Positions 10,064 through 26,630 of a stretch of DNA of 64,000 nt are shown here, one piece after another; position 1 is the stretch's first letter; each line of letters opens with the position of its first letter. The notes under the pieces were generated by a model that made no database searches, had not been told where the DNA came from, and saw only the letters and a list, made by a program, of their open reading frames with translations. Both the position numbers and the translations under genes were made by a program. Location of the stretch: NCBI GenBank assembly GCA_964589625.1, contig CAZPSH010000001.1, positions 45,862 to 109,861 of the forward strand. The letters run 5' to 3'. This DNA is from an uncultured Thermoanaerobaculia bacterium. Its GTDB lineage: Bacteria; Acidobacteriota; UBA4820; DSQY01.

Positions 10064-10707
10064 GGCCAAATGCCCTCCATGGCCTCGCGCAGGGCGCGTC
10101 GCGCCCTCGCCAGACGGGACTTCACGGTTCCCTCCGGCACCCCCAGCAGGGAGGAGAGTTCGGCGTAATCGAGTTGTTCAACCTCCCTGAGGACGAGGAT
10201 CTCCCGGTGCTCGGCCGAGACCTTCGACAGGGCGACCCGCAGGGCCGCGTACAGCTCACCCCCCAGGACCTGCTCCGCGGGGTCGGGCGAGGGGTCCTTG
10301 ACGATCCTCAGGGGCCGTTCCTCGCGCTCTTCGTCCGTGCGGTCGAGGCTTTCCGCGGCGGAGTCCCTCCTGGCCGCCGCCGAACCGCGGGTCCTGCAGA
10401 CGTTGAGGGCGATCCCGTACAGCCACGTCCGAAAGGCGGCATCCCCCCGGAAAGAGCGTAATCCCCTGAAGGTCCGAAGGAAGATCTCCTGGGTCGCGTC
10501 CATGGCCTCCTCGGGATGGCGGAGCATGCGGAGCGAGAGGCGATAGACCGCGCGCTCGTGCCGCCGTACCAGGGATTCGAAGGCCGCTTCGTCGCCGGCC
10601 TGAAACCGGGTCACGTCACACTCGTCGTCGCTTGTCCCGCAGGCCACGCCCGCCAGGGAGGTATCCAATCCGTCCATGGGGAGAGGATAAACCCATTCGA
10701 TGGACAC
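10060..10707 (-). CDS. ECF RNA polymerase sigma factor
   Basis: Region 2 (DATQEIFLR, FRTWLYGIALN) and region 4.2 (GVPEGTVKSRLARAR); start at GTG 10707 or 10713. Confidence 0.94.
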   Translation of the reverse strand: MSIEWVYPLPMDGLDTSLAGVACGTSDDECDVTRFQAGDEAAFESLVRRHERAVYRLSLRMLRHPEEAMDATQEIFLRTFRGLRSFRGDAAFRTWLYGIALNVCRTRGSAAARRDSAAESLDRTDEEREERPLRIVKDPSPDPAEQVLGGELYAALRVALSKVSAEHREILVLREVEQLDYAELSSLLGVPEGTVKSRLARARRALREAMEGIWP

Positions 10708-10727
10708 GCGCACCCTCCAGGGGGATG

Positions 10728-10753
10728 AGACCTCGGAGGCAGCGATTGGTTCC
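10728..10753 (-). promoter_or_regulatory. ECF-type (autoregulatory) promoter
   Basis: Minus strand GGAACC(10753-10748)-16 nt-GTCT(10731-10728) just upstream of the sigma RBS. Confidence 0.55.
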
Positions 10754-10821
10754 CCGACAAGAGAAGGGTTTCCCCGTGCGGGGGGGAACAGGCGAGGCGC
10801 ACGGTCAATCTGCCCGCGGGC

Positions 10822-12234
10822 CTAGATCAGGGCCATGGAGACCCCGGGGCGCAGAGCGGTTACGGGGTGCACGCCGAGACCGTCCAAGTGTCGGGCCAGG
10901 GCGGTCTGGGCCGTAGGCTCTCCGTGGACCAGAAACACGCCTTTCAGGCGGCCGCGGTCCTGGGCCAGGATCCACTCTCCGATCTCGCGATAGTCGGCGT
11001 GGGCGGAGAAGGCGTTGAGGATCTTCACGCGGGCGCGAACGGAATGCCGCTCGCCGAAGATCCTGACCTCCGGCCTCTTGTCGGCGAGGGCCCGTCCCAG
11101 CGTGTTCTGCGCCATGAACCCGACGATGAGAACCGTATTTCTTGGCTCCGACAGCCCGTGAAGGAGGTGGTGAAGGATCCGCCCCGCCTCGCACATTCCC
11201 GAGGTCGCGATGATGACGCACGGGCCCTTGCGGGAGTTGAGGGCCTTGGAGGCCTCCGCGTCCGTGATGTAGCTCAGGGAGCCGAAGGAGAAGGGGCTCT
11301 CGTTCCGGGACAGGAACGCCTCCACGGTTTCCCTGTCGTAACACTCCGGATGGGCCCGAAAGATGGCCGTGGCCGAAACGGCCATGGGGCTGTCCACATA
11401 AACCGGCACCGGGGGGATGCGTCCCGCGTCGTGGAGCCTGTGGAGACAGTAGATGAGTTCCTGCGTGCGTTCAACGGCGAAGGCGGGGATCAGGACCCGC
11501 CCCCCTGCCTCCACCGTGTTTCGGACCACTTGGGCCAGCTCCTCCTCGGCGAATTCGATCTCGTCGTGAAGGCGGTCGCCGTAGGTACTCTCACATACGA
11601 GATAGTCGAGCGGGGGCAAGCCTTCCGGGTCCCGAAGGATGGGCAGGCCCTTTCGCCCCAGGTCGCCCGTGAATCCGACGGAGAGGACCTTCCCCTCCGA
11701 GTGGACCTCCATGTGCACCAGAGAGGAGCCCAGGATGTGGCCGGCGTTGTAGAGGGTGACGACGACCCCGGGAGCGAGGGAATAACTCCGGCGATAGGCC
11801 ACAGTCACGTATTGGTGAAGGGCCGCCTTCACGTTCTCTTCGTCGTAGAGGGGGGGGAAGACCTTTCGCCAGGGCTTGGGGTCGCGGCTCTGCTGTTTGT
11901 CAAGAAATCGGGCGTCGTAGGCCTGGATGCGGGCGGAGTCCATCATGACCAGGCTTGCGATGTCCCGGGTCGCCGGCGTCGAGAGAATGTCCCCCGAGAA
12001 TCCCTCCTTGACGAGCAGGGGATAGGTCCCGCAGTGGTCGAGGTGTCCGTGGGTGTTCACGGATGCGAACAGGGAGGAGGGATTGAAGGGAAACCTTCGG
12101 TTCTTCTCGTGCGCCTCCTCCCGCCGTCCCTGAAAGAGGCCGCAATCCACGAGCACCTTTACCTGATCGGTCTCCAAGACGTGGCGGCTCCCCGTGACCT
12201 CTTCTGCGGCTCCGAACGAAGTGAGCGTGACCAT
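10822..12234 (-). CDS. Beta-CASP metallo-beta-lactamase-fold ribonuclease
   Basis: VTGS, VDCG, THGHLDHCG, AGHILGS, CESTYG, SGMCEAG, FSAHAD, LVHGE. Confidence 0.93.
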   Translation of the reverse strand: MVTLTSFGAAEEVTGSRHVLETDQVKVLVDCGLFQGRREEAHEKNRRFPFNPSSLFASVNTHGHLDHCGTYPLLVKEGFSGDILSTPATRDIASLVMMDSARIQAYDARFLDKQQSRDPKPWRKVFPPLYDEENVKAALHQYVTVAYRRSYSLAPGVVVTLYNAGHILGSSLVHMEVHSEGKVLSVGFTGDLGRKGLPILRDPEGLPPLDYLVCESTYGDRLHDEIEFAEEELAQVVRNTVEAGGRVLIPAFAVERTQELIYCLHRLHDAGRIPPVPVYVDSPMAVSATAIFRAHPECYDRETVEAFLSRNESPFSFGSLSYITDAEASKALNSRKGPCVIIATSGMCEAGRILHHLLHGLSEPRNTVLIVGFMAQNTLGRALADKRPEVRIFGERHSVRARVKILNAFSAHADYREIGEWILAQDRGRLKGVFLVHGEPTAQTALARHLDGLGVHPVTALRPGVSMALI

Positions 12235-12270
12235 GGGACCTCCCTGGACAGGGTAGCCCATGGGGACGCC

Positions 12271-12951
12271 TTGTTCAAACCGCGCGCTCGAAAGGGAGAA
12301 CGACGAACATGGCCATTGGGGGAGAACGGGGAGGTCGCCGCCCTCCTCCGGCCGTACCTCGAGAAGGAGGAGGCGGCCCTCGGCGCGGTCCTCGGACGTC
12401 TGCCGGTGGCCCTTTCGGGCGACAGGGTTCTCCTGCGAACGGGGGAAGCGCCCCTCGGGGATTTCGTGGCGGACGCGCTGAGAAAGGCGTCGGAAGCCGA
12501 GGCGGCCTTCATCAACGGAGGCGCCCTGCGGGCGGGTCTGCCGGCTGGCGACGTGACCGGGCGGGACCTCTATGCGTGCCTGCCCTTCTTCGATTCGCTG
12601 ACCACCGTCCTTCTCACGGGGGAGCAGATCCAGGCGCTTCTCGACCGGTGCGCCTCCATGTCCCGGGAGGATCCGCCGGGCGGGTTTCTGCAGGTCTCGG
12701 GCGTCGAGGTCGTTTATGACGACGGGGGGGCCGTTTCGGTCCGAGTCGGAAACGCGCCCTTGGATCGGGCCAAATCGTACCGGGTGGCCTGCACCCAGTT
12801 CCTGCTCTCCGGAGGAGACGGTCTGGTGGAGTTCACGGCTGGCCGGGACGCGCGGGATTGGGGCCTCGGCCTCCAGGAAATCCTTCGGCGCGAACTGTCG
12901 CGCCCGGATGTCCGAATCCCGCAGTCGGGAGGTCGGATCGTCCGTCGTTAA
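12271..12951 (+). pseudogene. 5'-nucleotidase C-terminal domain only (catalytic metallophosphatase domain absent); start uncertain
   Basis: GEAPLGDFVADAL, AFINGGALR, LPFFDS, LQVSG, FLLSGGDG; only 36 nt separate it from the divergent gene start. Confidence 0.7.
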
Positions 12952-13346
12952 GGGGCGGCTAACGGCGCCGAGAGGTGCGTCTCAAGGAATCGGCGAAGGA
13001 CCTCTTGCGACTCGGGGGAGGCGAGAATGCCGCCGTCGTTGTGGCCTCCCTTCAACACCTGAAAGACCTTTGGGCCGGGGGCCCTTTCGTAGAGGCGCCG
13101 CCCCATTTCGTAGGGCACGATCTCGTGATCCCGGGAATGGAGAACCATCACGGGGCAGGAAAGGCCGCCGATGCGGTCCAGCGAATCATAGCGGATCTTC
13201 AGGAAGACGTAGGATTCCTGCCGGAAGAACATGTAGGCGCTGAAGCCTCCGTAGAGAAGGACCAGCCCCACCACGAGCAGGAGGGCGATCTCGGCGGCCG
13301 GCCTGTGCGGTCCCTTCAGCCCCCTTTCCCTCGGCGGGACTTCCAT
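12948..13346 (-). pseudogene. Alpha/beta-hydrolase with in-frame loss of the central core
   Basis: N-terminal TM anchor ...FFRQESYVF joined directly to C-terminal ...RYDSLDRIGGLSCPVMVLHSRDHEIVP...GGHND; no GxSxG motif. Confidence 0.65.
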
Positions 13347-13384
13347 GGGGTAAGGGTGCCACGAACAGGCCCTTCGGGGAAGGG

Positions 13385-13414
13385 AAAAGGGCGCGGGGGG
13401 GTGCCCCCCGCGCC
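13385..13414 (-). terminator. Intrinsic terminator after the octaheme cytochrome gene
   Basis: 11-bp GC stem (13390-13400/13404-13414) followed by CTTTT on the minus strand. Confidence 0.7.
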
Positions 13415-13439
13415 GCTCGTGCTCCCTAGGTACCATGGG

Positions 13440-14729
13440 TCAATGTGGCGAGACAGCCTTGGCCTTCTGGGCGTGCTCCTTCCGGATCTGGGCCGCCTCG
13501 GCCTTGATCTCGACGAGGTCTCGCTTCATCTCGGCCCACCCGTACCAGTGCTGGTAATCGGGGTTCATGTGGAAGGCGCCCTGAAACGTTCGCATCCTGT
13601 GCTCCATGAGCATCACGTACAGCTTCTGCTCGATGGGGTGCTCGACCTCGTAGAAACGAAGAACGTCCACGCTGAAAGGGCGGTCCTTTGGCTCGGCCAG
13701 GATCCCGTCCCGGTATAGACCGTACACGTCCTGGATGGCCTGGGCCATGAGCCGGTCCGCGGCCTTGATGATCTCGTCGCCCTTCTGCAGCTCTTCCTTG
13801 GCGAAGCTGGGCCCGTGACACTTGGAGCACTGTCCGATCATCTGGTCCCTGCGGGCCTGCCACTCCTCCTTGGTCAGCCTCGCCACGTCTCCTGCCTTTA
13901 CGAGCTCGAGGCGGGCCGTGGGCTTGCCGTCCTTGTCGAGAACGCCCAGAGCCTGCAAGATCACCGCGCGGTCCGCCATCCACTCGGCGTCGTCTTCGGG
14001 GAGCCTGAGGGCGAGGAACCCCCAGGAGGTCTTTACCCCGTGGTCACCGGCGGGCATGTGGCAGAACGCGCACGTGGGGGCGCGGGGGGAGTCCGGATAG
14101 CCCGTGGCGGCCTCCTTGAACCAGTCCTTCAAGGGGACTTCCCAGTTGGTCTTATGGGCGGTCTGCATGTAGAGGGCGCCGTGCTTGCTCGTGGAGTACA
14201 TCTCCCACTGGGGATGGTCGAAGCCCATGTGGCAGGTGGCGCAGGCTTCGGGGCGGCGGGCCTCGGCCGCGGAGAAGAGGTGACGGGTGTGGCAGGAGTC
14301 GCACTTGCCGCCGTCCAGGCCGACCCGGTGACAGCCCCCGCAGCCCTTCATACCGTCCATGAGGGCGTGGGGCTGATCTTTGGTGGTCGGCATGGCGGTC
14401 ATGGCCACCCACGCCGCGGCGTGCTTGCTCTTTGCGAACTGTCCCGCCTGGTCGGGGTGGCACTGGGCGCAGGCCTTGGCGGAGACGGCGCGGACCACGC
14501 CGTTGGTCTCGCAGGCGCTCGTCTTGACGGAGGCGTCCCCCGTCAAGTGGCACTCGGCGCACGTGACGCCCCCGGCGGCGTGCTTGGAGAGCTTCCAGTC
14601 ACGCAGGGCGCTGCCCGTGATGCCTTGGGCGGTGTGGCACCCCACGCAGTCGGGCTCCTGCGCGGCGGCCGTGAAGGCCACCGCCAGAAGGCCGATCAGG
14701 ACGGTGAGACAGAGCCATCGCTTGTTCAT
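13440..14729 (-). CDS. Octaheme cytochrome c, hydroxylamine oxidoreductase (HAO/epsilon-Hao) family
   Basis: Signal peptide; 8 CXXCH motifs; MGFDHPQ...SKHG and FHMNPDYQHWYGW signatures; GGAGG RBS. Confidence 0.88.
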   Translation of the reverse strand: MNKRWLCLTVLIGLLAVAFTAAAQEPDCVGCHTAQGITGSALRDWKLSKHAAGGVTCAECHLTGDASVKTSACETNGVVRAVSAKACAQCHPDQAGQFAKSKHAAAWVAMTAMPTTKDQPHALMDGMKGCGGCHRVGLDGGKCDSCHTRHLFSAAEARRPEACATCHMGFDHPQWEMYSTSKHGALYMQTAHKTNWEVPLKDWFKEAATGYPDSPRAPTCAFCHMPAGDHGVKTSWGFLALRLPEDDAEWMADRAVILQALGVLDKDGKPTARLELVKAGDVARLTKEEWQARRDQMIGQCSKCHGPSFAKEELQKGDEIIKAADRLMAQAIQDVYGLYRDGILAEPKDRPFSVDVLRFYEVEHPIEQKLYVMLMEHRMRTFQGAFHMNPDYQHWYGWAEMKRDLVEIKAEAAQIRKEHAQKAKAVSPH

Positions 14730-14776
14730 CGAAGCCTCCCTCAGAAACCGAACACATTCTTCCAGGGCCAGCATAC

Positions 14777-16177
14777 TCACGGTTCTGTCGCGGCCAGCGT
14801 CAAGGCCTTCGCCTGTCCCTGGCGTGCGTAGTCGATGGCCTCGCCCAGGATTCTGGCAGCCTCCTGAGGGGCGTGAAACCCCATGGAGTTCTCGGAGGAG
14901 ATGAAGTCGATCCGCCACTGGGCTTTGCGTTGCAGCTCCAGGATGGGCGCGAGGTCCGCAGGGGTGGCGCCCCCGGCCTGGGCGGAGCGTACGGCGTCCA
15001 GTTGGTCCATCAGGGCGGAAGCGGCCCGCTGGAGAAGGGCGTGGTTTCGCCCCTGGATCAGGTCCACGCGCGACCGGATCTCCGCCTCCGGGTAACGGTG
15101 GCATGGCTGGCAGGCGCGCGAGATGGACTCGTCGTTTACAAGGGGGCTGCGGATCCAATGATCCGAGATCTTGAGGGCCCCCTGGCGGACATACGGCATG
15201 TGGCAGTCGGCGCAGGCAACGCCGGACCGGGAGTGGATCCCCTGGTTCCACATCTCGAACTCGGGGTGCTGGGCCTTGAGGGCGGGCGCGCCCGTCTCCG
15301 CGTGGGTCCAGTCCTTGTAGCCGGCCTCGTCGTAGTAGGCCTCGATCTCCTCGACCTTGAGTCCCTTTTGCCACGGGTAGGTGAGCGTTTTCCTGTCGCC
15401 CTTGAAGTAATACTCCACGTGACATTGCCCGCAGACGTAAGAGCGCATTTCCTGCCGCGTGGCGTCGCGGTTGGGATCGTAGTCCTCGATGCCCTGCGAG
15501 GCCTTGAGCGCCCGGATCCCGTTCAGGAACCCCGGACGGGTTACACGAAGTTCCATATTCCTAGGGTCGTGACAGTCCACGCAGGAGACCGGGTGGCGGA
15601 CAAGGGGCTTGCCCGAGTCGTCCTTGAGGTCGTGGGCCTGCTGGTAGGGCATGGCGCAGACCTCCTCGAAGCCCCTCATGACGTCGCCTCTCCCCACGTG
15701 GCGGTAGAGGGGGATGATCGAGGCATGGCAGTGAAGGCATGCGCCCGGCTGGGGCTTTTTGGTCACCCTCTCCGTGTGCTCCTGGTCGAAGAGCATGTAG
15801 GCGTGGCCTCTCCGGTCGCGGTAGTCGATGGAGAAGGCATATCCGTCGTACATTCGCTTGAGCCAGGGGTCGCGCTCCAGCTTCTGAGCCGGCAGGGCCT
15901 CGCTTCCGCCGAACTTGGTCCGGGTCGCGTCGGCCGTGCGCTTGTACGCGTCGAACTGGCGGGGCCAGTTCATCCCCCAGGTCTCCGGGTCGGTCGTCTC
16001 TTCCGAAACCTGGACGAGTTTGAGATAGGGGTCCTTCGCCTCCTGCTTCCGCTCGAAGATGTTAACGAGCAGGGCCGTGATCCCCGCGCTCGCCACCGCC
16101 GCCGCCACGGCAACCGCCGCGAAAAGGGTCAGCTTCCCCCTGGATTCCTTCCACCAACCCGTCAAGCCCGCCGCCAT
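14777..16177 (-). CDS. nrfA: Ammonia-forming cytochrome c nitrite reductase, catalytic subunit
   Basis: 5 heme motifs (CLHCH, CVDCH, CGQCH, CADCH, CQPCH), [27 protein letters not shown]. Confidence 0.95.
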
Positions 16178-16267
16178 TCTCCGCCTCCTTGCTCGGCCCC
16201 GTGTCCCCCTGGGGGCTGTGGGCCCTTGTCTGCGAAAGACCCCTTCTCTCTCGTTCCACTGCGCTCC

Positions 16268-16741
16268 CTAGCGCACCGGCCCGTGGCCCACGTCGGCGTG
16301 GCAGTGGACACAGCGCACGCCCCCCGTGCGGGTGGAGGCGCTGGCCACGAGGTCGTGAACCAGTTCTCCATGGCACCGCACGCAATTCTCTTGCAAGATG
16401 CCGGCGTTCTTTTCTTTGATGCGGATGGGTTCGTGAAAATCCTGGAAGGTGAAGCCCCGGGAGTGGTGGTACCCGTTTTCCGCCTTGGCGAGATACTTTT
16501 CCACGAAGCCGTGGGGCAGGTGGCAATCCACGCAGGCCGCCGCCCCGTGGTGTCCCGACTTCTGCCAGGAATCGAAGGACTCGTTCATGATGTGGCAATT
16601 CCGGCAAGCGGCCGGGTCCTTGCTGAAGTAAGAAAGGCCCTCGGCGTAGCCGAAGGTGAAGAAGCCGACGCCCGCGGCGATCCCCACGAGCAGGGCCGCG
16701 ATCCAGAGGGAGGACGGCAGGCTCGGATGGCTTCGGCTCAT
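16268..16741 (-). CDS. nrfH: Tetraheme quinol dehydrogenase subunit of nitrite reductase
   Basis: N-terminal TM, 4 CXXCH motifs, KAENGYHH; directly upstream of nrfA. Confidence 0.94.
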
Positions 16742-16756
16742 CAGGGGCTCCCTCCG

Positions 16757-18055
16757 CTAGTATGCGAGAGCCACCTGCAGGTACGCCAGGCGGCTTGGAT
16801 CGGGTCCGCGGACGGCCTTCGCGAAAGCCCCTGGGTCGTACTGGGAAATTCCCGCGAGCCACTTCATCGAGGGCCGCGTTTTGAAACCCCCTGAAATGGA
16901 GAGGTCCACTTCGCGGCCCACGTGCGTACCGGAGGCGCCCGTGAGATCCCGCCCCATCAGCGCCCCGCCCGCGGCGGTCCAGGGGGCGGTAGGGGAGTCG
17001 AGGCGAAAGTCATGGACCTCCACCTCCAGCCGCCATCGCTCCCGGATCAGGACCGAACCGAAGAGATTGACCTCCCGTAGGTTGCTCCAGTTGTGGTAGT
17101 CCATGAGGCCGTACTTGTTGTGGTTGGTGGGAAAGAGGTTGTCAAAAGAGCCGGAGCGGCCGTCGGAGGGGTCTTCGTCGCCGGAGGCGCGATTCCATTC
17201 AGCCCCCAAGGAAATGCTGGGCTTCGAGGGAATGTCCCACGTCACCCGGAGGGATTGGGCATCCGCGCGGTGCGGGTCTGGGCCCCGTTCTCCCGTCTGC
17301 CAAGCGGCCTCGAGGGCTACTCGAAGGCCGGCCCCAGGCGCCCAGAGGAGGCGGCCCCCATAGGTTGGGATGCGGCTTCGCAAAAGCCCACCGAGTTCGC
17401 CGGCCGCGAGGCCTCCATCCCGTTTGAGGAGGGCGTAGGCCTCCACCTTCAGGTCCTTTCGATCCTGGAGGAACCCCGCGTAAAGCCCCGATAGCGTTTG
17501 TTCGGGAGTGTCAAGGAGCAACGGCCGCTGCCTGGCGCGCGCAAGAAACGCATCAACGAACAGCCTTTCCGATTCGTAGCGGACCTTGGCCGCGTCGAAG
17601 GAGCGCCCCACGTTCGACCATCCGAAGGCGCCCACCAGGCGCTCCTCGCCGAAGGCGAGTTCCTGGCGGCCTAGGCGGGTGGACAGGCCCTCAAAGCCTC
17701 CGAGCCCCCGGACTTCCACAAAAGCCTGGCGGAGATCGGAGTACCGGCCCGAGATCTTGGCGGCGGCCGCGTCGGCGCCCCAGTGGCGGCTGTCCTGGCC
17801 CTCGGCGAAGACCCGGAGGGCCGCGCCTAGCCGAAGATCCAGGCCGGCTCTGAAGCGGTTCCCGACGAAGGCGTTGCGGTCCTCCGAGTCCTTATTGAAA
17901 TCCGCGTCCTCTCTGATCTCCCACCGGGCCCTCTCCTCCCAAAGGAGCCTCAAGGATCCTTCGCCGCCCTCCCAAAGGGGAAGGCCCTGTGCGCCCGCGG
18001 TCACGCCGATGAGCAGCCAGAGCCCTCCGAGAAAGCCCCGTCTTACGCATTTCAT
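16757..18055 (-). CDS. Alginate export (AlgE)-family outer-membrane beta-barrel
   Basis: Signal peptide; GRQELAFGEERLVG, WSNVGRSFDA, FDNLFPTNH; ends with an aromatic residue. Confidence 0.82.
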   Translation of the reverse strand: MKCVRRGFLGGLWLLIGVTAGAQGLPLWEGGEGSLRLLWEERARWEIREDADFNKDSEDRNAFVGNRFRAGLDLRLGAALRVFAEGQDSRHWGADAAAAKISGRYSDLRQAFVEVRGLGGFEGLSTRLGRQELAFGEERLVGAFGWSNVGRSFDAAKVRYESERLFVDAFLARARQRPLLLDTPEQTLSGLYAGFLQDRKDLKVEAYALLKRDGGLAAGELGGLLRSRIPTYGGRLLWAPGAGLRVALEAAWQTGERGPDPHRADAQSLRVTWDIPSKPSISLGAEWNRASGDEDPSDGRSGSFDNLFPTNHNKYGLMDYHNWSNLREVNLFGSVLIRERWRLEVEVHDFRLDSPTAPWTAAGGALMGRDLTGASGTHVGREVDLSISGGFKTRPSMKWLAGISQYDPGAFAKAVRGPDPSRLAYLQVALAY

Positions 18056-18112
18056 GGATTCCCTCCCTCGAGTCGGGGCGCCGAGTTGGGGGGCCTCGGC
18101 CGCCGTTGTCGG

Positions 18113-18460
18113 CTAGGATCTCAGGGTTGCCAGGGGCCTTTCCTTGACCAAGGTCAAAAGAAAGACGAACCGTCCGGGCGCCTTCACGGCGTGGACGAGT
18201 CCCTTGGGCATCACGTAGAGGGCCCCGGGGGTTGCCTCGTGGTCCTCGTCCCCGAGACGCACGGTGGCCTTCCCCTCCACGACGTGGATTACCGCTTCGA
18301 AGGGGGCCGTGTGCTCCGAAAGGGTCTGTCCCTCTTCAAAACAGAAGAGCACGAGCTTCAGCGCGGGAGAGTCGTAGAGGGTCTTGCTGACAATGCCACG
18401 CTCGGCGAACTGGGTGTGCCGGCTCAGATCGTGCACGAGGGGGTTCATCGAGTCCGTCAT
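18113..18460 (-). CDS. Cupin domain protein
   Basis: LSEHTAP...VVEG...HAVKA cupin motifs. Confidence 0.88.
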   Translation of the reverse strand: MTDSMNPLVHDLSRHTQFAERGIVSKTLYDSPALKLVLFCFEEGQTLSEHTAPFEAVIHVVEGKATVRLGDEDHEATPGALYVMPKGLVHAVKAPGRFVFLLTLVKERPLATLRS

Positions 18461-18478
18461 TGGATTCTCCCTTTGGGG

Positions 18479-18516
18479 GAAGCGGGCCGGGGCCGGAAAG
18501 GGCTCCGGCCCGCTTC
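18479..18516. other. Intercistronic long hairpin
   Basis: GAAGCGGGCCGG(18479-18490)/CCGGCCCGCTTC(18505-18516), perfect 12-bp arms; no U-tract on the coding strand. Confidence 0.7.
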
Positions 18517-18522
18517 GGGGTT

Positions 18523-20829
18523 TCAATGGGTGTGGCTGATCTGCCTGGCGTCCTCGGGGCGTTCCTTCAGAATCCCGAGCACGGCGAGGACCGCGCCAAT
18601 GGCGAAGGGGACGGCGCCCGCGAAGAGCAGGGTCATGTCTCCCGCTAGACGGATCCACTCGGTCGTGTGGAAGAGCCCGGTCATCGTGAACTCGACGCTC
18701 CGGGCGTGGGCGTACCCGTTCAACACCACGTCGTACAGCTGGAGCACTCCTGCGGGGAAGAGGTTGAGCACGATCATGAGGCCCAGGCCCGCGTTGAGCC
18801 CCCAGAACCCGGTCCGGATGAACTTCTCCGCTCGTCCCCAGACCCCGTCAGATGCGAGGGCCCGAAGGCAGTAGACGAGGACCGCGAGGGCGAGCATTCC
18901 GAAGACCCCGAACATGGCCGCGTGTCCGTGGTTTGGGGTGAGGGTGGTGCCCATTTCAAAGTAGGAGACGATAGGTAGGTTGATGAGAAAACCGAAGACG
19001 CCGGCACCGAGGAAATTCCAGAACCCCACGGCGATGAGAAACATGACCGCCCACTTCTGCTTGAGCGCCAGGGGCTTCCCGCAGTCCGCGCAGGGCTCCC
19101 TCTGGAGTTTGATGAAATCCCAAGCATCCAGGGTGAGAAGCGTGAGGGGAACCACCTCCAGGGCGGAAAAGCAGGCCCCGATGGCCATGGATACGGCCTC
19201 CTGTCCCGTGAAATACCAGTGGTGGGCCGTGCCCGCGATTCCCCCGGCGAGGTAGAGGATGGCATCCAGGTAGATGACCCGGCTCGCCGTGATCGTTCGG
19301 ACGAGCCCCATGTGGACGAACATAATGGCGACGAGGACCGTGGCGAAAAGCTCGAAAAAGCCCTCCACCCAGAGATGGATGATCCAGAAGCGCCAGTTGT
19401 CGATCACCGCGAAGTTGGTTCGCGCGCCCCAGAGGAAGGCGGGGAGGTAGAAGATCACCACGGCGACGGAGGCGAAGAGGAAGAGGCCCGCCAGTTCCCT
19501 CTTGTCCGCATCGCGGAAGGCCGGTGCCAGGGCGCGGACCATGAGAAGGAGCCAGAAGACGAGGCCCGCGGCGAGAAGAACCTGCCAGAAGCGTCCCAGA
19601 TCGACGTACTCTGAGCCCTGGTGCCCGAACCAGAACCACAGGTCGCCCAGCCGGTCGTGGATGCCCAGGTATTCCCCGAACAGGCTTCCGAAAACGACCA
19701 CCGCCAGCGCGCCCAGGAGGGCAAGGCCTCCCCATTTCTGTCCCTTGGGTTCCTGGCCGCCGAGCAGGGGAGCGAGGAACAGGCCGCCGCCCACCCATGC
19801 CGTGGCGATCCAGAAGATGGCGAGCTGTAAGTGCCACGTCCGGGCGAGGTTATAGGGAAGGAGGTTCGCGAGGCTGTACCCGTAGAAACCCTCGGGCTCC
19901 ACGCGGTAGTGGGCGAGCGCTCCCCCGAGAAAGACCTGGAGCAGGAAGAGGAGGACGACCACAAGGAAAAAGAGGGCCGTGATCCGCTGGCTCGGCGTGA
20001 GGGCCGCCGCCTTGGGAAGGCTCAGGTGAGCGGGCCTTTCCCCCCGGTCTCCCTTCCACCCCAGGAAGTCGAACTTCCCGAAGAAAAAGAGAATGGCTCC
20101 CAGCCCGCCCAGCAGGAACACGAGGCTTACGGCGCTCCACAGGATGGCCTGGGGCGTCGGCGTGTTCCCGGCCAGGGGATCGTAGGGCCAGTTGCTGGTG
20201 TAGGAATAGGCCCGTCCCGGCCGGTTTGCTCGCGCGGCCCAGGAAGACCAGGCCAGAAAGGCGGTGAGAACCCTGGCTTCCCCCTCGCCCTTGAGGTAGG
20301 ACGCCGGAAGGCCCGGAGCGCCCTTGGCGAGGTAGGCCGCCCACTCGGACTGCTGGACGGCGAAGCTCCGCGCCTCGCCCGCGGTGTACAGGAGGGCGCC
20401 CGTCGTGGCGTCGTAGCGGTTGGTCTTGAGAACCTCCTTGACCTCCGCGAGCACGGAGGCCCTCTGGCCATCGTCCAGGGCGTCCGCGTCCTTCCCGAAG
20501 CGGGAAGCCGCCAGCGTGTCGCGGGTGACTTCCGCCTCCCGGCGGAGGTAGGCCGCCGAGTAATCGGGGCCGAGGTACGCCCCGTGACCCCAGAGGGACC
20601 CGTGTTCCATGAGGCCGTACTTGAAAAAGACCTCCTGGCCCCTTCCCACGTCTTCGGCGGTGTACAGGACCGCGCCCCCTTCGTCCACCACCTGGGAGGG
20701 GATGGGGGGAGCCTTCCGATAGGTTTGAAAGGTCAGGAAGATGAGGATCGAGAAGCCGAAGATCATGACGCCGAGGGCGGATCTTCGCCACCACGGGGAC
20801 AGCCGCGCCTGGGTTTCGGGTCCGGACAT
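18523..20829 (-). CDS. norZ: Quinol-dependent nitric oxide reductase (qNOR)
   Basis: GSLWGHGAY, RTWHLQLAIFW, HLWVEGFFE, GTAHHWYF, HGHAAMFG; GGAGGTG RBS. Confidence 0.96.
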   Translation of the reverse strand: MSGPETQARLSPWWRRSALGVMIFGFSILIFLTFQTYRKAPPIPSQVVDEGGAVLYTAEDVGRGQEVFFKYGLMEHGSLWGHGAYLGPDYSAAYLRREAEVTRDTLAASRFGKDADALDDGQRASVLAEVKEVLKTNRYDATTGALLYTAGEARSFAVQQSEWAAYLAKGAPGLPASYLKGEGEARVLTAFLAWSSWAARANRPGRAYSYTSNWPYDPLAGNTPTPQAILWSAVSLVFLLGGLGAILFFFGKFDFLGWKGDRGERPAHLSLPKAAALTPSQRITALFFLVVVLLFLLQVFLGGALAHYRVEPEGFYGYSLANLLPYNLARTWHLQLAIFWIATAWVGGGLFLAPLLGGQEPKGQKWGGLALLGALAVVVFGSLFGEYLGIHDRLGDLWFWFGHQGSEYVDLGRFWQVLLAAGLVFWLLLMVRALAPAFRDADKRELAGLFLFASVAVVIFYLPAFLWGARTNFAVIDNWRFWIIHLWVEGFFELFATVLVAIMFVHMGLVRTITASRVIYLDAILYLAGGIAGTAHHWYFTGQEAVSMAIGACFSALEVVPLTLLTLDAWDFIKLQREPCADCGKPLALKQKWAVMFLIAVGFWNFLGAGVFGFLINLPIVSYFEMGTTLTPNHGHAAMFGVFGMLALAVLVYCLRALASDGVWGRAEKFIRTGFWGLNAGLGLMIVLNLFPAGVLQLYDVVLNGYAHARSVEFTMTGLFHTTEWIRLAGDMTLLFAGAVPFAIGAVLAVLGILKERPEDARQISHTH

Positions 20830-20899
20830 GGTCACCTCCCAACTGTATGGCTTGACGGAAGTGTTGGCCATTTCTTGTGCGATTTCAACCCCGCGGGCC

Positions 20900-21511
20900 T
20901 CAGGCGTGGCTCGAACAGCCGAAGCAGGAAGAGGTCTCCGAGACGCGGGTCGGATCGGGGGGATAGGACGCGCAAAGGCGCTCCGCCAGCGCGTGGAGAC
21001 GCTCGTGCTCGCCTTCTCCCATGGCGTCACGCTCGAAGGCTTCGTAAGATTCGGCGAGTTCGTCTTGCTCGGCGGGGGTGAGTGCCTGGAGGGCCATGGG
21101 GTAGAGGATGTTGTCCTCCTTGAGGATGTGGGCCCGGAGGAGGGGAACATACCGCCGCGCGGCCTCCACGACCTCGATCCTCTGCGGTTCGCTCAGCGGC
21201 CCCACACCCTCGCCCGAGCGAACGAGCGTTGCGACGCAGGCGCGACCCTCCACGTGCTCGGCAAGCATCACCGCGATGGGTCCGTATTCCGTTGGGAACC
21301 CGCGTTGCGCCATCTTGGCAAAGAGACGGTCTTCCTCCTTGCCGTGGTGGCAACGGTCCGCGAAGAGGCGGAAGAAGTCCCCGTAGGCGCGAAGAATTTC
21401 GCGATCTGGGACCGGTCCGGACTCGATGGCCAGGGCACACGTCTCAAGGGAACCGAGGACGCGCTCGATGATTCGGTGTTCGTCCATCAGTATGGCGATG
21501 GCGGCATGCAT
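20900..21511 (-). CDS. Hemerythrin-like di-iron protein
   Basis: EHRII, HHGKEE, EHVEGR, HILKEDNILYP; C-terminal CFGCSSH tail. Confidence 0.88.
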   Translation of the reverse strand: MHAAIAILMDEHRIIERVLGSLETCALAIESGPVPDREILRAYGDFFRLFADRCHHGKEEDRLFAKMAQRGFPTEYGPIAVMLAEHVEGRACVATLVRSGEGVGPLSEPQRIEVVEAARRYVPLLRAHILKEDNILYPMALQALTPAEQDELAESYEAFERDAMGEGEHERLHALAERLCASYPPDPTRVSETSSCFGCSSHA

Positions 21512-21602
21512 GAGAAGCCTCCTAAGACCTGTAACAGGACCAATGGATGCGCGAATGCGCAGATAGGGGCAAGAAAAGCAGGGTCAGTAGGCCGCATCGT
21601 AA

Positions 21603-22037
21603 TCAACCCTTCGGACCGGAAGGTCCGCCTCGCGGGGCCGATGACGGACTGTGGAGATCCGCGATGGTGATGGCCTCCATCATCTTCGTATAGGTGGCTT
21701 GGATGCTCTCCCAGTAGGCGTGCAGGGGACACGGGTTGTCCTTGTCGCATCGGGCCAGGCCGAAAAGGCACTGACCTTCGGCGCGGGGCCCGTCAAAGAC
21801 TTCGAGGACCTGCAAGATGGGCTGCCGCTCCGCGCCGGGAGCGAGGCGGAATCCGCCTCCCCATCCCTTTTGCGACAGCACGAAGCCGCGCTTTCTCAGC
21901 TGGTTGAGGATTTTTGAAAGGTAGTTGGCCGGAATCCCCGTATCCTGCGCGATCTGCACGCCTTGCACCCAATCCCCTCGACGCGAGGCCAGATGGCCGA
22001 GGATGCGCAGGGCGTACCGGGAAGTCTGTGACAGCAT
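21603..22037 (-). CDS. Rrf2-family Fe-S transcriptional regulator
   Basis: YALR, IPANYLSKILNQL, GWGGGF; C-x6-C-x5-C-x2-H ligand set. Confidence 0.94.
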   Translation of the reverse strand: MLSQTSRYALRILGHLASRRGDWVQGVQIAQDTGIPANYLSKILNQLRKRGFVLSQKGWGGGFRLAPGAERQPILQVLEVFDGPRAEGQCLFGLARCDKDNPCPLHAYWESIQATYTKMMEAITIADLHSPSSAPRGGPSGPKG

Positions 22038-22045
22038 CTCATCAC

Positions 22046-22085
22046 CTCACAGCATGAGTGTATGCCGTGAGAGCGAAGAAGTCAA
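22046..22085 (-). promoter_or_regulatory. sigma70 promoter of rrf2 with overlapping inverted repeat (candidate operator)
   Basis: TTGACT(22085-22080)-17 nt-TACACT(22062-22057); CTCACAGCAT-N6-ATGCCGTGAG at 22046-22071. Confidence 0.65.
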
Positions 22086-22153
22086 GCCGTGACTCCTCTC
22101 CCCTCGCTATCGTATTGAATGGTCATGGGTTACACACCCCGCAGCGCGCTTCC

Positions 22154-23779
22154 TTACCAGGGTTTCATGCCCGGGGGTAGGTTTTCGGGCGGACGCATCT
22201 GGTCCTGCATGTCCTTCGGAGGCGGCATGGGGAGCTGCTCAAGCAGGTCCGGAGGCTTGGCGTGGGGGGGGGGAGGTTCGGGAGGCTCGTCGGGCGGGGG
22301 GGGCTCCTCGGGGCGGTTCCTCAGGATCCATTCGTAGAGAAGCTTGGCCGCCTGGTGGCCCGGCTCGAGGGTCAGTAGGCCGCGCAGGGAGGCGAGGGCG
22401 CGGTCAGGAGAGCCCGAATCATACAGGGCGAGGGCCAGATTGTAGAGTGTGGGGATCTTCACCTCCGGCTCGTCTGTCACGAGGGCCAGGGTCAGGGCGT
22501 CCGCGGCCCGCTGGGGGTCCTTCTTGGCCAGGAGGCAGCTTCCAACGTTGAAGTTGAGCCGCGCTTTCTCCGCCGGGTCGTCGGAGGCGGAAAGAGCCTG
22601 GCGATAGAGCACGAGTGCCTGATCTGGAGAGCCCGCCCGGTAGGCGGCCAGGGCCTCGGCCGCGCTGGACCTGGGCGACCGGGCCCAAACCTGTCCGGCG
22701 CTGGCCAGAAGGGCCGCCCCGAGGACCAGACCCGCGCCCGGGGCGAGGGGTGCGCGCGACCTCATCGGCGGCGAGGCGCCCTCCCGCGGAAGGCGCCTTC
22801 TCCCAGGCAGGAGGAGGGCCGCCAAAAGGAAGAGAAGGGCAGGCGCGGCGAACCAGCGGAACTGCTCCTGGCGGGTGGCCCGGCTCTTGGAGGCGTACTC
22901 CCGGCGCTTGAGGCGGCCGAGTTCCTCCAGGAGAGAAGGAACCGCGCTTCCTCCGCTTCCGAGGGACCAATAGCGTCCATCGGCCAGCGCCGCCATCTGG
23001 CGGAGCTCCGCTTCGTCCAAACGGGACAGCGCGGCCCGGCCCGTGGTCGGGTCCGTCAAGGGCTCCCCGCGAGGCCCCGGTACAGGACCTCCTGAAGGAG
23101 TTCCCACGCCGATGCAGAAAAGTCGGATACCGCTCCGCGCCAGACTCCGAGCCGCGTCGGCCGCGTCTGCGCCCATGTCCTCGCCGTCCGATAGAAGGAG
23201 AACCACCGCGTCGCGGTCCCGCTGGGCCGGAAAGAGCTTCTGGGCGGCCAGAAGGGCACGTCCCACGTCGGTTCCCTGGGGAGGGATGAGCTGTGTATCC
23301 GCGATGTCGAGAAGAAGCGCTACGGCGGCCGTGTCCTCCGTGATGGGGGAGAGGGCGAGGGGTACCCCTCCGAAGGCCACGAGGCCCATCCGGTCCCCTT
23401 CGTTCGATGAGAGAAAAGAGCGGATCTCCATGCGGGCCCGTTCGAGCCGGCTCGGCGCCACGTCCGACACGGCCATGCTCCGGCTGACGTCGAACGCGAT
23501 CACCACGTCGAGGCCGACCTTCCGGACGTTTTCCGCCACTTCGCCCCATTGGGGACGGGCGAAGGTGAGGAAGGTGAGGCCGATGGCCAGCCAGACCGCC
23601 GAGCCCCGGACCGTATCCCATTCGCCGGGGGGCAGCAGGGAGAGCCGGCGGAGGTTGGCCGCACCCCCCCACGGGGCGGCGCGGGAGGCCCGCCTCCACC
23701 GCGAAAGGGCCGCCCCCAAGAGAAGGAGGGGGAAGGCGGCCAGGAGGACCGCTCCCGCAGGATGGGCGAAGGGCGTCAC
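22154..23779 (-). CDS. VWA protein with TPR and Pro-rich tail (BatB/BatC-like fusion)
   Basis: DVSRSM MIDAS, LLSDGED, TM segment, TPR-like FNVGSCL/LYNLALA; GTGA overlap with the upstream gene. Confidence 0.85.
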   Translation of the reverse strand: MTPFAHPAGAVLLAAFPLLLLGAALSRWRRASRAAPWGGAANLRRLSLLPPGEWDTVRGSAVWLAIGLTFLTFARPQWGEVAENVRKVGLDVVIAFDVSRSMAVSDVAPSRLERARMEIRSFLSSNEGDRMGLVAFGGVPLALSPITEDTAAVALLLDIADTQLIPPQGTDVGRALLAAQKLFPAQRDRDAVVLLLSDGEDMGADAADAARSLARSGIRLFCIGVGTPSGGPVPGPRGEPLTDPTTGRAALSRLDEAELRQMAALADGRYWSLGSGGSAVPSLLEELGRLKRREYASKSRATRQEQFRWFAAPALLFLLAALLLPGRRRLPREGASPPMRSRAPLAPGAGLVLGAALLASAGQVWARSPRSSAAEALAAYRAGSPDQALVLYRQALSASDDPAEKARLNFNVGSCLLAKKDPQRAADALTLALVTDEPEVKIPTLYNLALALYDSGSPDRALASLRGLLTLEPGHQAAKLLYEWILRNRPEEPPPPDEPPEPPPPHAKPPDLLEQLPMPPPKDMQDQMRPPENLPPGMKPW

Positions 23780-24777
23780 GGCAGGCACCTCCCCAAGGTC
23801 ATCTCCCAGAGGGCGTAGGCCGCGAGGCTGAGCAGGGCGGCTCCCGCGGGGTAGAGGAAGAGGTCTTCGTAGGCGACGTACCCGGAGGATTGGGTCTTGG
23901 TCCGCTCGAGCCGGTCGATGGCCTCGAAGACCTTCTCCAACGCCCGTCCGTCCGACGCGTTGAAATAAACGCCATCGGTGGATTTGGCCAAGGCCTTCAA
24001 CACCTCCTCGTTGAACCCGATCCGGACGTACTGGTAGGACTTTTTCCCGCTCTCGCCGATCACGGGATAGGGGACGACTCCCGAACTCCCGATGCCCACG
24101 GCGTATACCCGGATGCGGTGGGAGGCGAGCATCTGAGCCGCCTGGAGGGGGTCGAACTGCCCCCGGTTGTTCTCGCCATCGGTCAGGAGAATCACGACGC
24201 GGCTCTTCTCTGGGGCGCCCAGCAGCCTCTTCCCCGAAGCCACGAGGGCGTCCCCAATGGCCGTCCCGTCGATCTCGGTACGGGTAACCGCGCGCAGGTC
24301 CTGAACGAGCGCAAGGAGGGTCCTGTGGTCGAGGGTGAGAGGGCACCGGAGGAAGGGCATGGCGGCAAAGGTGACGAGCCCCATTCGATCTTCGCTCCGC
24401 CGCCGGACGAAGTCCGCCACCACCGTCCGCGCCACGTCGATGCGGTTGTTGGGCTGGAAGTCCTCCGCGATCATGCTCCCCGACACATCGATGCAGAGGA
24501 GGATGGCGACCCCCTCCGTGGACACCGTCGTGCGGCTGGACTTCAAGGAGGGCCTGGAGAGCGTCAGCGCCAGGAAGGCGAAGCCCGCCAGGAGCAGGCC
24601 GGTGGAGATCCAAGGAAACGCCCTTCCCCTTCCCGCCAGAGCCTCGATCTGGAGGGCCGGCGGAAAGGGGAGGGCCCTGCGAAACCGGTGGAGGAGGTAG
24701 GCGCGATAGGCCACCAGTGGTGGAATGAGGAGGAGGGCCCAAAGCCATGCGGGATCGCGGAAAACGAAGTGGCTCAT
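23776..24777 (-). CDS. VWA domain protein (BatA-like)
   Basis: N-terminal Bat TM, DVSGSM, RMGLVTFA, GTAIGDAL, LLTDGENN. Confidence 0.92.
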   Translation of the reverse strand: MSHFVFRDPAWLWALLLIPPLVAYRAYLLHRFRRALPFPPALQIEALAGRGRAFPWISTGLLLAGFAFLALTLSRPSLKSSRTTVSTEGVAILLCIDVSGSMIAEDFQPNNRIDVARTVVADFVRRRSEDRMGLVTFAAMPFLRCPLTLDHRTLLALVQDLRAVTRTEIDGTAIGDALVASGKRLLGAPEKSRVVILLTDGENNRGQFDPLQAAQMLASHRIRVYAVGIGSSGVVPYPVIGESGKKSYQYVRIGFNEEVLKALAKSTDGVYFNASDGRALEKVFEAIDRLERTKTQSSGYVAYEDLFLYPAGAALLSLAAYALWEMTLGRCLP

Positions 24778-25730
24778 GCGGCCTCCCGCTTTCCCGCGGG
24801 GGACTTCGGAGGAGTCTGAGCCAGCGCCTGGAGGGCCGTCCTTCTCGCGGCGTCCTCCTCGGCGGCATCGGGAAAGTGGCGCGCAAAGAGGACCTGGTCG
24901 CAGAGCTCGAGAACGGCGGCGTAGGCCCGTCCCGCCTCCGTGGGGAGCTCTGGGAGGGCGGCGAACCCACTCCGAACCTCGTGGCCGGTCCATTCGAGGA
25001 AGGGCCGTTCAAAGCGCCACTCCAGAAGCGTTCGGAGCACCATCGAGAGGGCTTCGTACCGGGCGCCGGGGTCAAGGCGGGTCGCGAAGATCCGCTCCAC
25101 CTCCCTGCGCGCCCAGAGCGGGGGATCCGTTTCGCGCAGCGTCGGCTTCGGCGGAGGGAACGCCGCGCGGGCCCTCGCCTTCTTCAAGCCCGCCGCGAGA
25201 GCCGCGATTCCCAGCGCGAGGCCCGCTGCGGCCAGAAAGATCCACATCCACGGAATGCCTCGGGGCAGGGAGAGGGGCCCGGCTTGGGGCGGGCGCGGGG
25301 CATCGCCGGAGGGCAGGAGAGGCTCCAGGAGAAGCGGAGGAGGAGAGAGGACGAGGTCGTGGAGTCCCGAGCGATCTCGGACCGTGATTCGGGCGGCCGG
25401 AAAATCCACCTTCCCGGTGGAAAAGACCTGCACCGTCACGGCGAGCCGAAGGTCTCCCGGGAACGAAGGGGGCGGTGTCTTGGCGAGAGAGACTACCCGC
25501 CCAGGTCCCCAGTCGGCTCCGGGGACGAGGTCGCCCTCGAGAAAGAACTCCGGCGAGGACACGGGAAGAGACGACTCCAGCACCACGGGGTCGCCCAGAT
25601 GCGCAGGACCCTGTAAAATCCACCGGCCTCGAACGGACGGAGCCGTCAGGACGGGAGCCGTGGAGGAGGCCTCCAGAGCAATAAGCGAGAGAGAAAGAAG
25701 GAGTGCCGGAGGGCCGATGAGCCTCTTCAC
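24774..25730 (-). CDS. Bat-operon associated exported/membrane protein
   Basis: Signal peptide, Pro-rich linker, TM; start/stop overlaps with both neighbours. Confidence 0.7.
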   Translation of the reverse strand: MKRLIGPPALLLSLSLIALEASSTAPVLTAPSVRGRWILQGPAHLGDPVVLESSLPVSSPEFFLEGDLVPGADWGPGRVVSLAKTPPPSFPGDLRLAVTVQVFSTGKVDFPAARITVRDRSGLHDLVLSPPPLLLEPLLPSGDAPRPPQAGPLSLPRGIPWMWIFLAAAGLALGIAALAAGLKKARARAAFPPPKPTLRETDPPLWARREVERIFATRLDPGARYEALSMVLRTLLEWRFERPFLEWTGHEVRSGFAALPELPTEAGRAYAAVLELCDQVLFARHFPDAAEEDAARRTALQALAQTPPKSPAGKREAA

Positions 25731-26608: not shown

Positions 26609-26630
26609 GGCAAGAGACCGCAGGGCGCCC

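Follow-up and report, generated by a model that had tools for sequence, protein, structure and literature searches.

An Rrf2–hemerythrin locus joined to nitric oxide reductase, nitrite reductase and octahaem cytochrome genes in a narrow lineage of Acidobacteriota

We analysed a window of 64,000 nucleotides from an uncultured Thermoanaerobaculia bacterium of the phylum Acidobacteriota (assembly GCA_964589625.1, contig CAZPSH010000001.1, positions 45,862 to 109,861). The window contains a cluster of eight consecutive genes, all on the minus strand. In the coding direction, these are rrf2, a hemerythrin-HHE gene, qNOR, a cupin gene, an Alginate_exp porin gene, nrfH, nrfA and hao. The last encodes an octahaem protein of the hydroxylamine oxidoreductase (HAO) family. 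From rrf2 to hao, the spacers are 91, 70, 62, 57, 15, 90 and 47 base pairs (bp). A preliminary description of the window had reported co-oriented genes with short spacers. This is confirmed (15–91 bp), and the gene order is conserved in independent assemblies. Gene calls were set using third-position G+C and starts preceded by a Shine-Dalgarno sequence. Overlapping false open reading frames (ORFs) crowd mechanical ORF lists because the window is approximately 66% G+C. Long overlapping mechanical ORFs of 875 and 661 amino acids were reduced to the final calls once Shine-Dalgarno-preceded starts were applied. All features described below are on the minus strand.

The family assignment of the cluster proteins is unambiguous from Pfam and NCBIfam scores. 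Together with PDB and fold searches, these scores bear out every gene identity given in the preliminary description. The first gene, rrf2 (21603–22037), encodes an Rrf2-family regulator of 144 amino acids (PF02082, 101 bits; TIGR00738, 107 bits). Its predicted cluster ligands, CX6CX5CX2H, comprise three cysteines and one histidine that are invariant in four orthologues. Among PDB entries, IscR (5e-8) and NsrR (1e-6) were both matched, and the protein is about equally distant from the two structures. Judged by sequence, it is not NsrR and has an IscR-like Cys3-His ligand set. With NsrR it shares the Rrf2 fold with three conserved cysteines and, apparently, a palindromic operator-like dyad over the promoter.

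The second gene (20900–21511) encodes a cytoplasmic di-iron protein of the hemerythrin-HHE type (203 amino acids; PF01814, 68 bits). The pattern of histidine and glutamate di-iron ligands is conserved in the alignment of orthologues. Similarity to YtfE/RIC is weak: TIGR03652 gave 24 bits against a cut-off of 205, and the YtfE structure was matched with an E-value of 0.004 over the di-iron domain only. PF01814 is the sole Pfam match. Hence, the protein has no ScdA_N domain and is not a two-domain RIC/YtfE protein. At its C-terminus (20900–20935) a SCFGC motif is invariant in four orthologues. The motif could serve as an additional site for a metal or for redox chemistry; we know of no such motif described for RIC/YtfE proteins.

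The third gene, qNOR (18523–20829), encodes a quinol-dependent nitric oxide (NO) reductase, also named NorZ, of 768 amino acids (PF22085 and PF00115). The protein aligns over its full length with solved qNORs from Alcaligenes, Geobacillus and Neisseria (6QQ5, 3AYF and 6FWF; E-values 1e-158 to 1e-167). It has approximately 13 hydrophobic segments and a haem-free, cytochrome-c-like N-terminal domain with no CXXCH motif. No norC-like gene adjoins qNOR, in keeping with an enzyme made of a single polypeptide. Next come a small cytoplasmic Cupin_2 protein (18113–18460; 115 amino acids; PF07883, 42 bits) and an AlgE-like outer-membrane beta-barrel of the Alginate_exp family (16757–18055; 432 amino acids). 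The latter has a signal peptide, judged by its signal-like N-terminus. It scored 176 bits with PF13372 against a cut-off of 25, and the match covers profile positions 9–384 of 395. The porin gene ends 15 bp upstream of nrfH, and its product is a probable anion channel that would import nitrite.

The nrfH gene (16268–16741) encodes a membrane-anchored tetrahaem quinol dehydrogenase of 157 amino acids, and passes the cut-off of its equivalogue model (TIGR03153; 172 bits, cut-off 134). NrfH has one N-terminal hydrophobic helix and four CXXCH motifs, the first of which, CRNCHIM, is of the CXXCHXM type. Its partner nrfA (14777–16177) encodes a pentahaem cytochrome c nitrite reductase of 466 amino acids with five CXXCH motifs (PF02335; 433 bits, cut-off 24). 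The enterobacterial-type equivalogue NF008339 was not reached (304 versus 595 bits). The first, catalytic, haem motif of NrfA is CLHCH rather than CXXCK, and CLHCH is found in all 120 of the nearest homologues. Hence, this NrfA falls in the known subgroup in which all motifs are CXXCH. The active-site arginine, tyrosine and histidine, and the calcium ligands, align with those of Wolinella succinogenes NrfA (1FS9), including the LKAQHP segment. NrfA of the all-CXXCH type requires no dedicated haem lyase (PMC12285233). Consistent with this, no haem lyase gene is present in the cluster.

The last gene, hao (13440–14729), encodes a short octahaem cytochrome c of the HAO family, similar to epsilon-Hao and HAOr (429 amino acids), with a Sec signal and eight CXXCH motifs. 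Hao scored 130 bits with PF13447 and matched HAO, HOX and HDH sequences in the PDB (E approximately 1e-35). An AlphaFold model was obtained with a predicted local distance difference test (pLDDT) score of 81.6 and a predicted template modelling (pTM) score of 0.80. All 11 matches to this model at E ≤ 0.001 were HAO-family or HAO-like multihaem proteins, with template modelling (TM) scores of 0.62–0.69. The best TMq, 0.69, was with Kustc0458, while NrfA and the octahaem nitrite reductases (ONR) remained below 0.3. Reductive and oxidative HAOs could not be separated by the fold search (TMq 0.69 versus 0.67). Hao-type proteins are very common, forming more than 7,000 protein clusters.

HAOs that lack a tyrosine cross-link are reductases (PMC8042395). 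In Hao, His394 is the residue aligned to the cross-linking Tyr467 of NeHAO. The C-terminal loop aligns without gaps to that of the cross-link-free Kustc0458, where a tryptophan lies opposite Tyr396 of Hao. The motif NPDY[QML]HWYG, in which this tyrosine lies, was present in 120 of 120 homologues checked. Apparent in-frame stop or selenocysteine codons in hao genes of Geomonas and others were ruled out; the ORFs are uninterrupted and the split profile matches are an alignment artefact. By its sequence, Hao is likely to lack the cross-link. Epsilon-Hao reduces nitrite and hydroxylamine in vitro (Haase et al. 2017, as cited in PMC8042395), and papers on these enzymes take ammonium as the product. 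For Hao, the most probable product is also ammonium, made from hydroxylamine, nitrite or NO. We scanned approximately 40 other ORFs in the window and found no nap, nar, nir or nos genes among them. The preliminary description was thus right to report that nirS and nirK are absent from the window.

To place the cluster among relatives, we used a set of one representative genome per species for 185,579 GTDB species. At least 579 hao stretches, from many phyla, were matched. The best 80 hao-anchored species loci were surveyed using hidden Markov models (HMMs) of the eight proteins against six-frame ORFs. The exact eight-gene order occurred in none of the 80. Directly upstream of hao, nrfHA was found in one (Bryobacterales; locus L059). 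The block rrf2-hemerythrin-qNOR-cupin-porin was also found in one, an Acidobacteriota metagenome-assembled genome (MAG; L001) with a Hao 86% identical to that of the window. In L001, a second octahaem paralogue, hao2, stands in place of nrfHA; its product is 26% identical to Hao. Two metagenome contigs carry all eight genes in the same order: L081 (71–93% amino acid identity) and L082 (67–89%). Both contigs share the flanks of the window; in L082 these are a VWA/TPR gene upstream and an alpha/beta-hydrolase gene downstream. Locus L081 is a single locus from a porin-anchored metagenome scan; further relatives were obtained by look-ups of NrfA, Hao and Rrf2 homologues. In all, the exact order was seen in three close genomes. 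We found no description of it in the literature, and the preliminary description was justified in treating the arrangement as neither common nor characterised.

Other relatives carry subsets of the genes. At the same genomic position, L096 has rrf2-hemerythrin-qNOR-cupin-hao only, and L087 has the porin gene and a C-terminal remnant of hao2, followed by hao. The remnant in L087 (1382–1627) covers residues 361–442 and is 72% identical to hao2 of L001. The fragment is what remains of a gene in decay, at the place occupied by nrfHA in the window. Also at this genomic position, L088 has only the cupin gene (39% identity) and hao, and L089 has hao alone. Conversely, nrfHA stands alone as a two-gene unit in four relatives (L083–L086; NrfA 70–72% identity). 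The nrfH-nrfA spacer is 90–117 nucleotides in the three eight-gene loci and 1–16 nucleotides in these four stand-alone loci. In the window, this spacer (16178–16267) has no significant structure (RNAfold z −0.5). Bare rrf2-hemerythrin pairs, with Rrf2 approximately 62% identical, occur in an Acidobacteriota MAG and a Deltaproteobacteria MAG (L097 and L098). A hao gene accompanies qNOR without exception in L096, L001 and the window, and genes resembling qNOR are found close to hao in L016, L023 and L030. The gap between cupin and hao thus looks like a labile slot, filled by the porin gene and either hao2 or nrfHA, with a direction of change that we can only infer. That nrfHA and hao2 occupy the same slot upstream of hao in sister lineages suggests comparable roles there.

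A scan for regulatory sites placed the promoter and operator (22046–22085) and the terminator (13385–13414) where the preliminary description had put them. The rrf2 promoter (22057–22085) is sigma-70-like, with a −35 element TTGACT (22085–22080), a 17-nucleotide spacer and a −10 element TACACT (22062–22057). It is the only minus-strand promoter-like match inside the cluster in a consensus scan. A putative operator dyad, CTCACGGCAT-N6-ATGCTGTGAG (22046–22071), overlaps the −10 element and the likely transcription start. The Shine-Dalgarno sequence of rrf2, GAGGTG (22047–22042), lies 3' of the dyad. When aligned, the rrf2 upstream regions of seven loci (four orthologous clusters, L096 and the two rrf2-hemerythrin pairs) have in common TTGAC, a spacer of approximately 17 nucleotides, TAYACT and, on either side of the −10 element, the arms of a dyad CTCAN-N16-NTGAG. 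In five of the seven, spanning two phyla, the fifth positions of the dyad are complementary (C/G, G/C or A/T). Hence, symmetry has been kept through paired changes. Because the left arm lies upstream of the −10 element, the dyad must be a site in the DNA rather than a helix in the transcript. The pattern looks like that expected of the operator of a dimeric repressor.

A second box precedes the hemerythrin gene (21545–21572). It consists of a −35-like TTGCCC (21572–21567) and GCATTCGCGCATCC (21558–21545). In all seven loci, a block TCAnnGGAYnnnCnCATCC is kept approximately 35 nucleotides upstream of the hemerythrin start. The block is preceded by a TTGnCC hexamer and by a T-rich tract that sits after rrf2. 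Possibly, the box is a second promoter controlled by Rrf2. The pattern GCATNNNCNCATSC has two matches in the window, which are the two boxes, against 0.2 expected; this comparison is generous, since the pattern was derived from the same sites. A 13-mer operator core with three mismatches allowed gave extra matches in the window at chance level only.

Directly 3' of the qNOR stop codon is a GC-rich hairpin (18479–18516) with a stem of 12+3 bp (RNAfold −36.9 kcal/mol, z −6.1). The structure is kept, with differing stem sequences, in all five orthologous loci (the window, L081, L082, L001 and, by eye, L096). A U-tract follows it in L081 and is absent in the window. The hairpin may be an attenuator or an mRNA-stabilising element, and has no dispersed copies in the window. 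Its conservation puts single-transcript control of the cluster in question. After hao, an intrinsic terminator, GGCGCGGGGGG-CAC-CCCCCCGCGCC followed by CTTTTCCCTT, occupies 13380–13414. Its hairpin of 11 GC pairs (13414–13390) is the best terminator-like site in the scan. Hairpins also follow hao in L081, L082, L001 and L096, with a T-rich tail everywhere except L082. An Rfam scan of 12800–22400 gave no match at E ≤ 1.

We lean, if only slightly, towards reading the locus as a widespread Rrf2-hemerythrin stress unit that has been expanded within one clade. The core would be rrf2-hemerythrin-qNOR-cupin-hao, with porin-nrfH-nrfA inserted between cupin and hao. All parts are of known kinds; the eight-gene combination is clade-specific and so far found only in a narrow lineage. 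Support comes from the gene identities, from the same order and flanks in L081 and L082, and from the graded series formed by L096, L001 and L087. Stand-alone nrfHA in L083–L086, and the single nrfHA-hao junction among 80 loci, also favour this view. So do the paired changes in the dyad, the second box, the absence of other promoter-like matches in the cluster and the one strong terminator. Similar gene sets recur in Desulfosarcina ovata, under NorR, and in Sphingomonas, with Rrf2, and a porin-nrf operon is co-regulated in Bacteroides thetaiotaomicron. Finally, HAOs without the tyrosine are reductases (PMC8042395) and NsrR represses nrf in E. coli (PMC12285233). The preliminary description had proposed an integrated cassette. 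This proposal is supported only in part. The cluster is modular; the porin-nrfHA insert alternates with hao2 in L001 and L087, and nrfHA stands alone in L083–L086.

Several observations weigh against our preferred reading, and some of them suit other explanations. The three eight-gene genomes are close relatives, so the conserved order may be simple descent. RNA runs from one study with a related strain contained no reads of the locus, other than a few spurious pieces of 18–42 nucleotides. No operator-like box was found upstream of the cupin, porin, nrfH, nrfA or hao genes; boxes precede rrf2 and hemerythrin solely. In addition, qNOR is followed by a strong hairpin whose structure is conserved, and rrf2 by a T-rich tract. 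These features would suit a cluster divided into two or three transcription units, comprising rrf2, hemerythrin-qNOR and cupin-porin-nrfHA-hao. The distal unit would be an operon for respiratory ammonification that responds to nitrite, anoxia or iron signals rather than to Rrf2, and adjacency would reflect insertion sites only. The modules do occur alone elsewhere, as nrfHA (L083–L086), cupin-hao (L088) and rrf2-hemerythrin (L097, L098), and the nrf operons already known are regulated by FNR/Crp, NarXL/QP or iron. However, the consensus scan found no coding-strand promoter-like site between qNOR and hao, and the qNOR hairpin has no U-tract in the window. In L096, cupin-hao directly follows qNOR in the same orientation, and NsrR does repress E. 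coli nrf. We treat separate units as a tentative possibility. Of the single unit under one Fe-S sensor proposed in the preliminary description, an Rrf2 regulator with an operator-like dyad stands. Control of the whole unit by that sensor is put in doubt by the restriction of boxes to rrf2 and hemerythrin, and by the conserved qNOR hairpin.

The identity of the signal is a further point of contention. Rrf2 scored 31 bits with the NsrR equivalogue NF008240, for which the cut-off is 182. The SUF regulator and IscR models are the best NCBIfam equivalogues and outscore NsrR, all below their own cut-offs, and the Cys3-His ligands are as in IscR. A homologue with 59% identity lies beside a suf operon (L099), directly upstream of sufBCD-type genes; control of Fe-S assembly may therefore be a further function of this Rrf2 subfamily. 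Furthermore, the porin-nrf operon of B. thetaiotaomicron is strongly iron-regulated (PMC10434189). Hence, Rrf2 might sense Fe-S or iron status, in the manner of IscR or SufR, rather than NO specifically, with the cluster tuned to supply for its haem- and iron-rich products. We think this rather doubtful. The nearest Rrf2 homologues are paired with hemerythrin and qNOR, not isc or suf, the analogous D. ovata set is under the NO-specific NorR, and the IscR and SUF scores are far below their cut-offs. Sensing of NO and of Fe-S status are, moreover, not mutually exclusive. The assignment of Hao as a cross-link-less reductase is also contested by its own sequence. Phmmer pairs Tyr396 with a tyrosine at position 415 of the Kuenenia HOX chain, which, on our own reading of the numbering, we take to be the cross-linking Tyr451. 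The conserved Tyr396 is one to two residues from the aligned cross-link position, and this weakens the call of a Tyr-less enzyme. A different product has to be considered if the call is right. The Kuenenia HAOr, which is Tyr-less, converts nitrite to NO (PMC8042395). Acting likewise, Hao together with qNOR would form a route from nitrite through NO to nitrous oxide (N2O) independent of nirS and nirK, in competition with NrfA for nitrite. The gap-free C-terminal loop alignment and the best TMq (0.69) are both with Kustc0458, qNOR is always accompanied by hao in L096, L001 and the window, with qNOR-like genes near hao in L016, L023 and L030, and no nirS or nirK gene is present in the window. If true, this would mean that a branch point between dissimilatory nitrite reduction to ammonium (DNRA) and N2O is set within one regulon, and that denitrification surveys based on nirS and nirK miss such organisms as N2O sources. 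However, epsilon-Hao proteins reduce nitrite and hydroxylamine in vitro, according to the work cited above, with ammonium taken as the product. Hao is only approximately 24% identical to Kustc0458, TM-scores do not set it apart from oxidative HAOs, and no Kustc0457-like dihaem partner is present. Finally, an NO producer under an NO-damage-responsive regulator would create positive feedback. We consider NO formation by Hao improbable.

A working model can be built on the preferred reading, that of an expanded Rrf2-hemerythrin stress unit. The widespread rrf2-hemerythrin unit would have gained qNOR-cupin-hao in an acidobacterial lineage. An Rrf2 dimer with a Cys3-His Fe-S cluster would sit on the dyad of its own promoter and on the hemerythrin box. 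Family and gene context suggest that the repressor is inactivated by NO, or by Fe-S damage from nitrite-derived NO. Hemerythrin and qNOR would then be made, and qNOR, acting as its family does, would use quinol to reduce NO in the membrane and cytoplasm to N2O. The distal genes, encoding the cupin, porin, NrfH-NrfA and Hao, might be expressed by read-through of the qNOR hairpin or from an unrecognised internal promoter. In the periplasm, NrfHA would reduce nitrite to ammonium. Other NrfA enzymes also reduce NO and hydroxylamine. The cross-link-less HAO would most likely convert hydroxylamine, nitrite or NO to ammonium. Overall, nitrite and its toxic intermediates would be cleared from periplasm, membrane and cytoplasm; most of the product would be ammonium, and N2O would arise on the side. 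On this model, the organism may combine DNRA with N2O formation, as the preliminary description had inferred.

HAO-like octahaem proteins without the tyrosine cross-link are very widespread and their physiological role is still debated. In the present locus, hao forms the constant end of an rrf2-hemerythrin-qNOR-cupin unit. Together with the slot shared by nrfHA and hao2 and with the D. ovata gene set, this suggests that HAO-type reductases work beside an NO reductase in dealing with NO, hydroxylamine and nitrite. The locus also offers a concrete, testable system, with two operator-like boxes, one regulator and one enzyme, that bears on how nitrite is partitioned between ammonium retention and N2O emission in uncultured Acidobacteriota. 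Should the cluster prove to be an ordinary stress-plus-DNRA locus, its value will be limited to better annotation of the lineage.

The surroundings of the cluster were also inspected. Other genes of the window are housekeeping in nature and include DNA ligase, biotin carboxylase, QueC, a MoxR/DUF58/VWA Bat-like operon, Mla, GGDEF and PPK2 genes, among others. The Bat-like operon (MoxR AAA ATPase, DUF58, VWA and VWA+TPR genes; 22154–27629) adjoins the cluster upstream, as it also does in L082 and L096, and hence the cluster is at a fixed chromosomal position in the lineage. Downstream of the terminator, an alpha/beta-hydrolase gene is reduced to a 132-amino-acid remnant (12948–13346). The ends of the remnant match residues 1–74 and 208–286 of the 293-amino-acid L001 orthologue. 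Only these ends matched, so approximately 130 internal amino acids have been lost. The missing stretch is the region of the L001 protein that gives the hydrolase-domain matches (Hydrolase_4, residues 87–204). In L001, L082 and L096, this gene has kept its full length. Further downstream (9044–12261) are genes for a beta-CASP/RMMBL RNase (10822–12261) and an extracytoplasmic function (ECF) sigma factor (10060–10713), and an ORF without a Pfam match (9044–10069). The same trio follows hao in L087. In L099, the rrf2 homologue (7001–7405) has a nosZ-nosDFY cluster on one side and a block of MerR, Fe-S biosynthesis, sufBD and cysteine desulfurase genes on the other. Parts of the locus were also found in approximately 17 DNA metagenome runs, from aquatic, mine drainage, sediment, biofilm, groundwater, riverine, hot spring and freshwater sources. 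Given these varied habitats, the lineage is environmentally widespread. Contigs from a mine-drainage metagenome span the nrfA/hao and nrfH/nrfA junctions with approximately 99% identity to the window (compared over 13300–22200).

The closest regulatory parallel is with the NsrR regulons of E. coli and Neisseria (nrf, ytfE/dnrN, hmp or norB). These likewise rely on an Rrf2-family Fe-S regulator and a palindromic operator over the promoter, and, as here, a di-iron hemerythrin-like protein is found among their targets together with an NO reductase and Nrf. They differ in that the targets are physically joined in one locus only in the present cluster, and in that the present Rrf2 fails the NsrR model. 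To our knowledge, the CTCAN-N16-NTGAG operator does not resemble the E. coli NsrR consensus. In Ralstonia eutropha, the norA-norB genes place a di-iron YtfE-like protein directly beside a single-subunit quinol NO reductase, under the control of NorR. In the present cluster, the regulator is Rrf2, the di-iron protein has no ScdA_N domain, and five more genes follow the pair.

For the enzymes of the distal part, several relatives are known. Epsilon-Hao and its Caldithrix abyssi homologue are also short, periplasmic octahaem proteins that, like Hao, apparently have a residue other than tyrosine aligned with NeHAO Tyr467; the type is proposed to be a nitrite/hydroxylamine reductase (Haase et al. 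2017, as cited in PMC8042395). Epsilon-Hao genes adjoin nap clusters, whereas the present hao follows nrfHA or cupin in an Rrf2-qNOR cluster. The Kuenenia stuttgartiensis HAOr (Kustc0458; PDB 6H5L) has a C-terminal loop of the same length (HWYGW in Hao, WWWGQ in Kustc0458). Besides the low identity to Hao, it differs in having the dihaem partner Kustc0457, which has no counterpart here, and the present host is not an anammox organism. Campylobacter jejuni and Anaeromyxobacter dehalogenans have NrfA proteins likened to ours by motif type: in each, all five haem motifs are CXXCH, the partner is NrfH and a dedicated CXXCK haem lyase is lacking, in a different genomic context. In B. thetaiotaomicron, the BT1414–BT1418 operon co-regulates an Alginate-export protein with ccsA, resB and nrfAH (PMC10434189). 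That operon has the haem lyase genes ccsA and resB and a Crp-like regulator, whereas the present cluster is without a lyase and is joined to NO-stress genes.

The grouping of functions is most closely matched by an island on plasmid Do28_1 of D. ovata (L091; NZ_AP021877, 24645–36879). This island encodes NapC/NirT, a HAO2-type octahaem protein and a ferredoxin. Adjoining them is norR, the divergently transcribed gene of an NO-sensing regulator, followed by qNOR (42% identity), hemerythrin (35%), cupin (37%) and VOC genes. Its octahaem protein is 44% identical to hao2 of L001 and 30% identical to Hao of the window. The island differs in its NorR regulator and in having neither NrfA nor a porin. 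The plasmid is mobilisable, and Tn3 transposase and HicAB genes lie beside the island. Overall, it looks like a transferable island for handling NO and nitrogen oxides. On a Sphingomonas plasmid, an Rrf2 gene occurs with qNOR and hmpA, and with genes for a truncated haemoglobin and a cupin of distant similarity (24% identity). Hence, because the functional grouping recurs under other NO-responsive regulators, the concept of the gene set is less unusual than its exact order.

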